This document shows positions 32,541-47,952 of a stretch of 64,000 nt of DNA, one piece after another. The DNA lies in assembly GCF_988243305.1 (NCBI RefSeq), contig NZ_OZ547136.1; one strand, written 5' to 3'. A program made the translations under genes and the position numbers. The notes below the pieces were generated by a model. That model searched no databases. It was not told where the DNA came from and was given only the letters and a program-made list of their open reading frames with translations. How positions within the stretch are numbered: the stretch's first letter is position 1; each line of letters opens with the position of its first letter.

Positions 32541-34216
32541 CTCAATTTACGCAAAATACCGCCATGCCTTCTTCCCTCTGGCAATACTGGCGCGGCCTTT
32601 CCGGCTGGAACTTCTATTTTCTGGTTAAGTTCGGCCTGTTGTGGGCGGGATATCTTAACTTCCATCCGCTCCTCAATCTGGTGTTTGCCGCGTTTCTGCT
32701 GATGCCCATTCCGCGCTACAGCCTGCATCGCTTACGCCACTGGATTGCCCTGCCGATCGGCTTTGCTTTGTTCTGGCATGACACCTGGTTACCTGGCCCG
32801 GAAAGCATAATGAGCCAGGGTTCGCAGGTGGCGGGGTTCAGTACCGATTATTTAATCGACCTTGTCACACGCTTTATTAACTGGCAGATGATTGGGGCCA
32901 TTTTTGTTTTATTAGTGGCCTGGTTATTCCTGTCACAATGGATTCGCATTACCGTTTTTGTGGTTGCCATTCTGCTATGGCTGAACGTACTTACCCTGGC
33001 GGGACCAAGTTTCTCCTTGTGGCCAGCCGGTCAACCGACGACCACTGTAACAACGACGGGTGGTAACGCAGCGGCAACCGTTGCGGCGACGGGTGGCGCA
33101 CCGGTAGTGGGTGATATGCCCGCACAAACTGCACCGCCAACAACGGCGAACCTTAACGCCTGGCTGAATAATTTCTATAACGCGGAGGCGAAACGTAAAT
33201 CGACCTTCCCGTCTTCGCTGCCCGCTGATGCTCAGCCATTTGAACTACTGGTGATTAATATCTGTTCGCTTTCCTGGTCGGATATAGAAGCCGCCGGGTT
33301 GATGTCGCATCCGCTGTGGTCGCATTTCGATATTGAGTTCAAGAACTTTAACTCCGCCACCTCCTACAGTGGCCCGGCGGCGATCCGTTTACTGCGCGCC
33401 AGCTGCGGGCAGACTTCGCACACTAATCTGTATCAACCGGCAAATAATGACTGCTATCTGTTTGATAACCTGTCGAAACTGGGCTTTACCCAGCACCTGA
33501 TGATGGGACATAACGGCCAGTTCGGCGGTTTTTTGAAAGAAGTTCGCGAAAATGGCGGCATGCAGACCGAATTGATGGATCAAACAAATTTGCCGGTTAT
33601 TTTGCTGGGCTTTGATGGTTCGCCGGTTTATGACGATACCGCCGTGCTTAACCGCTGGCTGGACGTTACCGAAAAAGATAAAAACAGCCGTAGTGCCACG
33701 TTCTACAACACGCTTCCACTGCATGACGGCAACCATTATCCGGGCGTCAGCAAAACAGCGGATTACAAAGCGCGGGCGCAGAAATTCTTTGATGAACTGG
33801 ACGCCTTCTTTACTGAACTGGAGAAATCGGGTCGTAAAGTGATGGTGGTCGTGGTGCCGGAACACGGTGGCGCGCTGAAGGGCGACAGAATGCAGGTATC
33901 TGGCCTACGTGATATCCCTAGCCCGTCTATCACAGACGTCCCCGTTGGGGTGAAATTCTTCGGCATGAAGGCACCACATCAGGGGGCACCGATTGTCATC
34001 GACCAACCGAGCAGCTTCCTGGCTATCTCCGATCTGGTGGTTCGCGTTCTTGATGGCAAGATTTTCTCCGAAGACAATGTTGACTGGAAAAAACTCACCA
34101 GTGGGTTGCCACAAACAGCACCGGTCTCAGAGAACTCAAATGCAGTAGTTATTCAATACCAGGATAAACCGTACGTTCGCCTGAACGGCGGCGACTGGGT
34201 GCCTTACCCGCAATAA
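32537..34216 (+). CDS. bcsG: Cellulose phosphoethanolamine transferase BcsG, 559 aa
   Basis: ORF track; N-terminal TM segments plus alkaline-phosphatase-like periplasmic domain; start overlaps the bcsF stop. Confidence 0.95.
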
Positions 34217-35851: not shown

Positions 35852-37123
35852 ATGCAGCACAACACACTACCGAAACACAATCAGAAATTGCCGTTTACAC
35901 GCTACGACTTCGGCTGGGTTTTATTATGCATAGGCATGGCGATTGGTGCCGGAACCGTGCTGATGCCAGTACAAATTGGCTTGAAGGGAATTTGGGTATT
36001 TATTACCGCAGCGATCATTGCTTATCCTGCCACCTGGGTAGTGCAGGACATTTATTTAAAAACCCTTTCTGAAAGCGATTCCTGTAATGACTACACCGAT
36101 ATTATCAGTCATTACCTGGGGAAGAACTGGGGAATTTTCCTCGGGGTTATCTACTTTTTGATGATTATCCACGGGATTTTTATCTACTCTCTCTCCGTGG
36201 TTTTCGACAGCGCCTCGTACCTGAAAACCTTCGGTTTAACCGATGCCGATCTTTCACAATCTCTACTTTATAAAGTCGCCATTTTCGCCGTACTGGTGGC
36301 AATTGCGTCTGGTGGTGAACGATTACTGTTTAAGATTTCCGGGCCAATGGTGGTGGTCAAAGTAGGGATTATCGTCGTGTTCGGTTTTGCGATGATCCCG
36401 CACTGGAATTTCGCCAATATAACCGCCTTCCCGCAAGCCTCCGTCTTTTTCCGCGATGTCCTGCTTACCATTCCCTTTTGCTTCTTTTCTGCGGTATTTA
36501 TTCAGGTACTTAACCCAATGAATATTGCCTATCGTAAACGGGAAGCGGATAAAGTACTGGCAACCCGGCTCGCGCTGCGTACCCACCGAATTAGTTATAT
36601 CACGCTCATTGCGGTGATCCTGTTTTTTGCCTTTTCGTTTACCTTCTCAATTAGCCACGAAGAAGCCGTTTCTGCCTTTGAACAAAATATCTCGGCACTG
36701 GCACTGGCCGCGCAGGTGATCCCTGGGCATATCATTCATATCACCTCTACGGTGCTGAATATCTTTGCCGTACTGACCGCATTCTTTGGCATTTATCTCG
36801 GTTTCCACGAGGCCATTAAAGGCATTATTCTCAATCTGTTAAGCCGAATTATTGATACCAAGAAAATTAACTCACGCATGCTGACTCTGGCGATCTGCGC
36901 TTTTATCGTCATTACGTTGACGATTTGGGTTTCGTTTCGTGTATCGGTGCTGGTGTTCTTTCAGTTGGGAAGCCCGTTATATGGCATTGTGTCGTGCCTC
37001 ATTCCGTTTTTCCTGATCTATAAAGTCGCACAACTGGAAAAACTTCGCGGGTTTAAAGCCTGGCTGATTCTGCTGTACGGCATTTTGTTATGCTTGTCGC
37101 CACTGTTGAAGCTGATTGAGTAA
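35852..37123 (+). CDS. yhjV: Putative amino-acid transporter (HAAAP/STP-like inner-membrane protein), 423 aa
   Basis: ORF track 35789..37123; canonical start [15 protein letters not shown] at the internal ATG (35852); polytopic membrane protein. Confidence 0.92.
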
Positions 37124-45816: not shown

Positions 45817-47025
45817 TTAAAGGGAGCCATGCGCCTCACGCAACATTTTCTGCTCTGGCTGACGAATCGTCGTAGAGAGCGCCAGTGACAGAATCAGCAG
45901 GGCGAAAATCACGTAGAAGGTCACATAGAAGCCGCCAAACAGTGAGGCGATAATCGACCCACAAATGCTGCCGATACCGAAACCGAGATAAATCACACCG
46001 TAGTTTTTCGCCAGGTTATTGAGGCCGAAGAACTCACTGACCAGTGACGGGAACACCGTGATAGTGCCGCCAAAGTTAAACGCCACGCAGGCAATCGCTG
46101 CAAAGAACGTCACTGCATTCAATGGTGCAAACAGCAGGGCCGCCATACCCACCAGCGAAATCACCTGACCAATGGTGATAACACGGATTCGGGCGATTTT
46201 GTCAGACAGTATCCCCAGAACCAGACGACCTGAAAGGTTGGCGATGGAAATAACAGTGACTGCATTGGCTGCGGAAACCACATCAAGGTGTGCCAGACTT
46301 TGGGCGATATCTTTCGCTACCCCAATCACGTACAGGCCGCTCATGCAGGCAGTCAGGAACATTACCGCTAACATCCAGTACTGCGGTTTACGCATCGACT
46401 CTGCCAGCGTGTAATCTTTCTCCACGACACCATTGCTGGTTTTCACTTCCTGTTTTGGTGCGTCTTTCATTAACGTTGCGCCGAAAACAATCATCACCAG
46501 CGCAATCGCTCCCCAAATCACAAATGTTTTTTCCAGACCCACCGTTTCCAGCAGCTGCGTGTCGATAAATTTGAAACCCAGGCTACCCAGACCATAAGAA
46601 CCGATAGCGAACGCGGAGATCAGACCTTTACGCTCCGGAAACCACTTCACGCAGTTAGAGAGCGTCAGCAGGTAACCCGCGCCATCCGCCAGACCGACCA
46701 GCACACCGGCGCTTAACCACAGCATCATCAGGTTGTCAGAATGCGCTGTCAGGAAGAAGCCTAATCCCAGCAAAATGCCGGAAGCCATAGTGACGCGTTT
46801 AACGCCAAAACGTTCCTGTAATTTCCCCGCAACAGAAGATGAAATTGCCAGCCCCAGACTTAACAAGCCGAAAGAGAAAGCGACCTGGCTTACCGGCGCA
46901 TCCAGCTTGGCAGAAAGCGCGCCGTTAAACAGGCTCCAGGTATAAACCGACCCCAGCGCAAACTGGGTAATGATAGTACCGATGAGTGTCAACCAGCGGG
47001 TACGCTGATAATTTGAAGGTGTCAT
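45817..47025 (-). CDS. yhjX: MFS transporter (oxalate/formate antiporter-like; pyruvate-responsive YpdAB target), 402 aa
   Basis: ORF track 45817..47070; canonical start MTPSNYQRTRWLTLIG at the internal ATG (47025). Confidence 0.93.
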   Translation of the reverse strand: MTPSNYQRTRWLTLIGTIITQFALGSVYTWSLFNGALSAKLDAPVSQVAFSFGLLSLGLAISSSVAGKLQERFGVKRVTMASGILLGLGFFLTAHSDNLMMLWLSAGVLVGLADGAGYLLTLSNCVKWFPERKGLISAFAIGSYGLGSLGFKFIDTQLLETVGLEKTFVIWGAIALVMIVFGATLMKDAPKQEVKTSNGVVEKDYTLAESMRKPQYWMLAVMFLTACMSGLYVIGVAKDIAQSLAHLDVVSAANAVTVISIANLSGRLVLGILSDKIARIRVITIGQVISLVGMAALLFAPLNAVTFFAAIACVAFNFGGTITVFPSLVSEFFGLNNLAKNYGVIYLGFGIGSICGSIIASLFGGFYVTFYVIFALLILSLALSTTIRQPEQKMLREAHGSL

Positions 47026-47108
47026 GGCAGTATTCCTGCAGTAATAAAAAGGAAAAATCTCTGCTGACAACCATAACGAAGTGCACTTTATGCCTGGGGA
47101 AAAACGGC

Positions 47109-47139
47109 ATGAAATGCCATCAGAACGGAATGAAATGCA
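47109..47139 (-). promoter_or_regulatory. YpdB (LytTR response regulator) binding site: direct repeat GGCATTTCAT-N11-tGCATTTCAT upstream of yhjX
   Basis: Minus strand contains two copies of the motif in direct orientation with an 11-bp spacer, about 85-115 bp upstream of the yhjX start. Confidence 0.75.
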
Positions 47140-47253
47140 TTAGTTCAGGAATGAATGACTCGACAATTATTCACTAAATTTATTATTTAGTAAGTTAGCA
47201 CCCACTATCGCCACAACTGTTGTTATCCAATGGTTTCAATTGTATCTATAACG

Positions 47254-47952
47254 TTAAAATCTGGCACTAACCCCCATCGTATACAGATAGTCGCTATTGT
47301 TAGTGGTATTTTCTGCCTGAGATAGCGCAGCATAGGCAGCAATATTTTGATTGAGCAACATATCAGCGCCTACGGTGACATCCAGCCAGTTGCCGTTCTG
47401 GTTTGTCGCCGTCATCCGGCTCAGGCCTGATTGCGCCTTCCAGATATTCTCGCCAAATTGCTGGTTATAGCTGATTTGCGCCCAGGGTCGGAGATCGCCA
47501 AGCCGGGAGTCAACACGCCAGCCTAAGGTACTCACGCTGGCATGCCATAACGGATCGGCCAGCGTGGTAGTACTGTCGCCAAACTCGTTATACATCGAGG
47601 TGGTTGTGCCATCGTAATGTAATGCCGCGACCGGGCCGGTTGTAACCTGCTCATATAAAGGAAAATTCCAGCCCATACTCATACTGCTGGTCACATCCAC
47701 AGGAGTTTCTTCCGCCAGATTGACTTCCAGTCCCAGCGCCCTTTGGCTACTTTGAATACGTTGCGACAAAATATCGTTGTAATCAGGTTGGTGATCACTA
47801 TCCCAGGTGTAACGCTCTGTGGAATGTCCGGGTTGCGTATCAACGATATATTCTTGTTGCCAGGCGTAAGCTGTGTTGAGAAAAAAGGCACTGATTACCA
47901 CACTCGCCAGCAGGCTTAGCTGCCAGCGACCACCGCTTTTTTTTATGATCAT
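47254..47952 (-). CDS. yhjY: Outer-membrane beta-barrel (autotransporter-like beta domain) protein, 232 aa
   Basis: ORF track 47254..47958 begins with GTG; start placed at the ATG two codons in (MIIKKSGGRWQLSLLASVV, signal peptide); C-terminal Phe as in outer-membrane proteins. Confidence 0.9.
   Translation of the reverse strand: MIIKKSGGRWQLSLLASVVISAFFLNTAYAWQQEYIVDTQPGHSTERYTWDSDHQPDYNDILSQRIQSSQRALGLEVNLAEETPVDVTSSMSMGWNFPLYEQVTTGPVAALHYDGTTTSMYNEFGDSTTTLADPLWHASVSTLGWRVDSRLGDLRPWAQISYNQQFGENIWKAQSGLSRMTATNQNGNWLDVTVGADMLLNQNIAAYAALSQAENTTNNSDYLYTMGVSARF

Follow-up and report, generated by a model that had tools for sequence, protein, structure and literature searches.

An allele of the YpdB operator, with a conserved third in-phase block, upstream of yhjX in Escherichia coli

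The window, that is, the whole 64,000-nt stretch of DNA analysed here, harbors yhjX on the minus strand and the 228-bp yhjY-yhjX intergenic region, which carries the operator described below. The E. coli chromosomal context is eptB-yhjX-yhjY-tag-yiaC-bisC, with eptB-yhjX-yhjY-tag conserved, and the gene downstream of the operator is annotated yhjX in more than 5,400 E. coli genomes. Its product is an intact 402-aa MFS_1 protein; a 417-aa open reading frame starting at TTG was rejected as a mechanical over-extension, RefSeq yhjX being 1,209 nt long. In most genomes the RefSeq/PGAP name of YhjX is 'L-lactate MFS transporter', and in the experimental literature the protein is a putative pyruvate transporter or antiporter, its substrate unproven. 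No intrinsic terminator was predicted between yhjY and yhjX (47026–47253). The gene and the parts of the operator are listed below.

45817–47025, minus strand: yhjX coding sequence, MFS transporter of 402 aa plus stop (1,209 nt; ATG at 47025)
47037–47034, minus strand: Shine-Dalgarno sequence AGGA upstream of the yhjX ATG
47105–47096, minus strand: conserved tail after site B, G-TTTTT-CCCC (species consensus n-TTTT-nn-CC)
47118–47109, minus strand: YpdB site B, the promoter-proximal repeat GGCATTTCAT, extending to 47106 as GGCATTTCATGCC
47129–47119, minus strand: 11-nt spacer TCCGTTCTGAT, identical to that of K-12
47139–47130, minus strand: YpdB site A, the upstream, promoter-distal repeat TGCATTTCAT (K-12 form GGCATTTCAT), its block reaching 47127 as TGCATTTCATTCC
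47160–47148, minus strand: R0, AGTCATTCATTCC, a third block in phase with sites A and B, its start exactly 21 bp upstream of that of site A

The regulator genes ypdAB map elsewhere on the chromosome, outside the window. The product of ypdB is a receiver and LytTR domain protein, and since 5,422 of the 5,426 complete E. coli genomes searched have the gene, this genome very likely carries it as well. In Yersinia and Serratia, ypdAB adjoin the yhjX homologue (PMC5552118). As for the source of the DNA, the best match to positions 36000–60000 over 24 kb among the 5,426 complete E. coli genomes was only 99.1% identical, and a 1-kb yhjX/yhjY piece was 99.9% identical to strain 7/2. The divergence over 24 kb reflects either a source lineage poorly represented in the genome collection or a mosaic region.

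The YpdB (PyrR) binding site of the E. coli K-12 yhjX promoter was reportedly described by Fried, Behr and Jung in 2013. The original prediction recognised this motif in the letters of the window and placed a YpdB direct-repeat operator at 47090–47160. The plus strand at 47100–47160 contains ...cggcATGAAATGCCatcagaacggaATGAAATGCAttagttcaggaatgaatgac, and the repeat pair does lie within this interval, on the minus strand like yhjX and thus in the predicted coding-strand orientation, with a spacer (TCCGTTCTGAT) of the predicted 11 nt. The order of the repeats, on the other hand, was reversed: the pattern as literally written, GGCATTTCAT-N11-TGCATTTCAT, had no match when both strands were scanned, and TGCATTTCAT-N11-GGCATTTCAT had one, at 47109–47139 on the minus strand, the coding strand of yhjX. 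A single T-for-G mismatch separates the repeats as had been stated, and 19 of the 20 positions match two copies of GGCATTTCAT, but the mismatch is in the first, upstream and promoter-distal repeat (site A of Behr et al., 2016) and not in the second. Evidently the plus strand (ATGAAATGCC-N11-ATGAAATGCA) had been read and each repeat complemented without swapping their order. The match to the K-12 fragment bore out the proposed YpdB/LytTR motif, its spacing, its regulator and its target yhjX; the interpretation is correct and only its description slightly garbled.

This match was obtained by comparing 47105–47162 (58 nt) with the native portion of the K-12 PyhjX fragment on which Behr et al. (2016; Table 1, PMC4847170) performed surface plasmon resonance (SPR). 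The fragment covers the DNase I footprint of YpdB, and 56 of 58 bases were identical. We call the upstream repeat site A and the downstream repeat site B because of which repeat is replaced in the 'A' and 'B' oligonucleotides of that study (PMC4847170, Table 1). The end of the site B 10-mer is located 83 nt 5' of the yhjX ATG (47025). The sequence features of the published operator are all present: the repeats, the 11-bp spacer, the position in the yhjX promoter and the identity to the footprint fragment. Compared with the K-12 operator, the gene, the strand, the length and sequence of the spacer and the flanks are the same, site B is identical and site A agrees at nine of ten positions; the differences, G to T in site A and C to A at position 1 of R0, are allelic and do not define another element. 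We conclude that the element is an allele of the published YpdB (LytTR-type) operator and that the finding is already known.

How this operator works has been analysed in K-12, where external pyruvate, or pyruvate derived from serine deamination under acid stress, activates the LytS-type kinase YpdA. Pyruvate activates the YpdA/YpdB system, for which yhjX has been described as the only direct target (PMC4847170 among other sources). In SPR with the K-12 fragment, YpdB-D53E showed a binding event of 1.2 nM with slow on and off rates and one of 21 nM with fast on and off rates; mutation of site A abolished all YpdB binding, mutation of site B left one event, and site B was the lower-affinity site, filled only after site A (PMC4847170). 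In the 'AB-BA' model derived from these data, activated YpdB takes site A first with nanomolar affinity, and a second YpdB takes site B cooperatively and transiently. The authors proposed that occupancy of site B recruits RNA polymerase; site B is vacated first, which results in a pulse of yhjX expression (PMC4847170).

We scanned GTDB species representatives with YhjX and obtained 80 loci with 84–99% protein identity from Enterobacteriaceae (Escherichia, Citrobacter, Enterobacter, Buttiauxella, Kluyvera, Lelliottia, Kosakonia, Klebsiella oxytoca and others); in the search for YhjX homologues, the relatives listed were all at least 89% identical. In all 80 loci the best repeat pair was found 67–104 nt before the start codon with a spacer of 11 nt. 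An ungapped, repeat-anchored alignment of 81 unique sequences revealed three conserved blocks of 12–13 nt, 21 bp apart and separated by spacers with less than 1 bit of information, and this 21-bp period was invariant in all species examined. The core G-n3-TTCAT-T-CC is common to R0, site A and site B. In site A (consensus k-GCATTTCATTCC), positions 2–13 were 93–100% conserved, whereas position 1 was G in 52 and T in 29 of the 81 unique sequences. In site B (k-GCA-y-TTCATGCC, then n-TTTT-nn-CC), position 1 was G in 30 and T in 43 of the 81, position 5 was variable, and the others were 86–100% conserved. The first 2–3 nt of the spacer (TCC) belong to the conserved site A block, and its remainder is unconserved. 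In the tail behind site B, columns 35–38 and 41–42 of the alignment were 84–100% identical; this conserved tail may be part of an extended site B or of the -35 region. Across the fetched loci, which total about 0.7 Mb and include the ypdAB region, the strict two-block pattern TTCATKCC-N8-KGCANTTCATKCC was found only in the yhjX promoter, with two matches in most loci (R0 to A and A to B). The three-block pattern occurred once in the window and not at all in shuffled versions of it. In one strain, E. coli DX6 (NZ_CP126345.1, locus approximately 455–855), YpdB site B is interrupted by an IS1 element, and the sequence diverges after GGCATTTC. This insertion parts yhjX from its operator and would be a natural promoter knock-out.

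The outermost block, R0, is as conserved as sites A and B over the 80 Enterobacteriaceae species and lies about 125 nt upstream of yhjX in those loci. Its consensus is n-G-[T/c]-C-[A/g]-TTCAT-T-CC, with twelve columns 77–99% conserved and unconserved columns on either side; in the window, the core 12-mer GTCATTCATTCC occupies 47159–47148 on the minus strand. In the literature surveyed, the original 2013 description of the YpdB site aside, R0 is not named as a site. It is nevertheless contained in the footprint-derived K-12 fragment (PMC4847170), and 'flanking nucleotides' are said to influence expression. From its conservation, R0 is probably part of the operator. We tentatively suggest, as a possibility held well short of even, that the YpdB operator is tripartite, R0 perhaps accommodating a third YpdB protomer or stabilising the protomer on site A. 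A different reading, which we regard as unlikely, is that R0 is no YpdB site but is bound by another factor or serves as a structural (bending) element whose likeness to the repeat is accidental. It would fit the SPR data in that no YpdB-D53E was bound when site A was mutated and R0 and site B were intact, which means that R0 is not an independent site, and that only one binding event was resolved when site B was mutated and R0 and site A were intact; positions 2–4 of R0, moreover, are TCA in place of the CAT of sites A and B. This reading has to contend, however, with two features of R0 seen in every species examined, the invariant core TTCAT-T-CC and a phasing of exactly 21 bp, and with the location of R0 inside the stretch said to be protected from DNase I by YpdB. 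In Atlantibacter hermannii the upstream-most of the three repeats is the canonical GGCGTTTCATTCC, and no other regulator motif was recognised in R0. As part of the YpdB operator, R0 may be a third site that works cooperatively, or its role may be structural.

The region between the operator and yhjX was examined for the core promoter in a MAFFT alignment of 79 species. Two conserved elements stood out.

47075–47070, minus strand: candidate -10 hexamer TATGGT, with T-A-T-n-n-T conserved at 95%, 95%, 80% and at least 95%, respectively
47063–47061, minus strand: conserved CAG (columns 56–58, at least 95% conserved), putative transcription start at the A at 47062

Six nucleotides lie between the end of TATGGT and the CAG. 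Another candidate, TAAAGT/CATAAA (CATAAAGT, 47092–47085), was rejected as the primary -10 element since it is not conserved outside Escherichia and Citrobacter, being absent as a conserved sequence from Enterobacter, Leclercia and Klebsiella. Based on conservation, TATGGT and CAG appear likelier to be the -10 element and the start than CATAAAGT. The conserved hexamer and the CAG suggest a -10 element and a start some 15 nt downstream of those implied by the E. coli-only CATAAAGT. In LytTR-type operators the proximal repeat characteristically abuts or overlaps the -35 region. With TATGGT as the putative -10 element, the 13-nt site B block would be at about -56 to -44; an overlap with the -35 region would result if the non-conserved TAAAGT were the -10 element. 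A scan with the sigma-70 consensus found no promoter at the real site and one chance-level match at 47267–47239 (1 found, 1.1 expected); it misses both -10 candidates, as is expected for an activator-dependent promoter. In the literature surveyed, again with the original 2013 description set aside, there was no experimental start site for yhjX.

The operator of the window differs from that of K-12-like, O157-like and other strains at two bases only: 47139 (T for G, position 1 of site A) and 47160 (A for C, position 1 of R0), the latter exactly 21 bp upstream of the former. When 5,426 complete E. coli genomes were searched, the 60-mer of the window was found exactly in 1,626 of 5,413 matching genomes and the K-12 60-mer in 3,605 of 5,395. 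A 71-mer that includes 47160 was also exact in 1,626 complete genomes, which shows that the two changes are fully linked. That linked changes each fall on position 1 of a block, 21 bp apart, may be a coincidence or may indicate co-selection.

One could suppose that the G-to-T change at position 1 of site A weakens YpdB binding and makes the yhjX promoter hypo-responsive or alters its threshold. All binding depends on site A, so changes there could matter most, and the full linkage to the change at position 1 of R0 could hint at co-selection. It would also fit that, in a strain with this allele (UTI89), induction was lost when btsS and ypdB were both mutated, BtsS being called a non-cognate partner of YpdB (PMC9765748). 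Against such a defect, 29 of the 81 unique sequences have T at position 1 of site A, and 28 of these come from the 80 other species, including Kluyvera, Buttiauxella, Kosakonia and K. oxytoca; the exact site A of the window, TGCATTTCATTCC, is native in 23 other species; and at position 1 of site B most sequences (43 of 81) have T. The occurrence of the allele in about 30% of complete genomes likewise argues against a defect. The uropathogenic strain UTI89 (ST95) carries the same allele as the window over R0, A and B. In the RT-qPCR of Wiebe et al. (2022; PMC9765748), its chromosomal yhjX showed an induction surge, which the btsS ypdB double mutant lacked. As the operator is the same, this induction indicates that the T allele is functional in its native context, although the native allele was read out by RT-qPCR only and the plasmid reporter may carry the K-12 promoter. 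Naturally segregating variants of the yhjX promoter, which responds to pyruvic acid, have been reported to behave consistently (bioRxiv 10.1101/2021.07.18.452581). We therefore consider a weakened promoter improbable. By comparison of the sequences, the T is evidently a common natural allele, ordinary and tolerated.

How much the repeat says by itself was judged from shuffled sequences. Pairs of 10-mer repeats with at most one mismatch at a 21-bp period occurred at seven places in the window, the yhjX site and six other loci, compared with about two per shuffled 64-kb window. When extended, the yhjX repeat matches at 14 of 16 positions (GCATTTCAT-n-CCGTT), a level obtained 0.03 times per shuffle. 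Just one unrelated direct repeat in the window reaches this level at a 21-bp period; it consists of TTCTTTGATGAACTGG and TTCTTTACTGAACTGG at 33785–33821 and may be inside a coding sequence. The repeat by itself is only modestly significant, and its significance must therefore rest on the identity to the mapped site and on the conservation in 80 species. That it is a chance direct repeat without a regulatory role, as such background counts alone would allow, is next to impossible, the idea being effectively refuted by the published binding data, that is, near-identity to a site that was experimentally footprinted and mutated, and by near-invariance over 80 species in which the flanks are saturated with changes.

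Operators of LytTR regulators consist of two direct or inverted repeats of 9–11 nt that are 11–13 nt apart (PMC4847170), and the yhjX element, with 10-nt repeats and an 11-nt spacer, falls within these limits. With the operators of AgrA (P2/P3), VirR (VirR boxes), PlnC/PlnD, ComE and AlgR it shares paired direct repeats that recur roughly every 21 bp (two helical turns) and lie upstream of a promoter that depends on an activator and whose hexamers match the consensus poorly. It differs from them in that the repeat sequence is specific to YpdB and in that the conservation suggests three in-phase blocks and not two.

The BtsR (YehT) operator of yjiY/btsT belongs to the paralogous pyruvate system and has the regulator family and the repeat logic in common with the yhjX operator; its repeat sequence is unrelated, its spacer is 13 nt and its target gene is another one, and it is absent from the window. 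The motif of BtsR is said to be ACC[G/A]CT[C/T]A, as reportedly given by Kraxenberger in 2012. Binding of BtsR to the yhjX repeats was considered and rejected because the BtsR motif, as present in the yjiY oligonucleotide, is unrelated in sequence (PMC4847170). The same yjiY control oligonucleotide (PMC4847170, Table 1) contains an imperfect extra copy, GCCGCTCA, 20 bp before ACCGCTTA-N13-ACCACTCA, and the three-block layout may be common to both paralogous pyruvate systems. Another regulator considered was PdhR, since yhjX is listed with a predicted, unvalidated conserved PdhR site (PMC3265435); no convincing PdhR box was recognised by eye in the yhjY-yhjX intergenic region (47026–47253).

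From sequence identity and conservation, we consider it highly probable that the element is the published YpdB operator, that it would act as in K-12, and that the functional unit would be larger than two 10-mers. The copy in the window would work like that of K-12, the sole difference within the repeats, G to T at position 1 of site A, sitting where G and T vary freely across species. The repeat unit would be the block of 12–13 nt (kGCATTTCAT-k-CC), reaching beyond the two 10-mers, and R0, 21 bp upstream of site A, would contribute as the third in-phase block.

The finding matters little, for it identifies anew an operator of textbook level that had been mapped by experiment in an organism already studied well. 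The 'perfect repeat' taken as reference is a feature of K-12, since about 30% of complete E. coli genomes, including UTI89, have T at position 1 of site A. Because position 1 is degenerate (K) across species, motif searches should use kGCAyTTCATkCC and not GGCATTTCAT. Only the conserved third block may be new. The current two-site kinetic models include neither this third in-phase block nor the conserved T-tract. If the operator is indeed tripartite, this would extend the 'AB-BA' model, and the paralogous BtsR site may share the layout.
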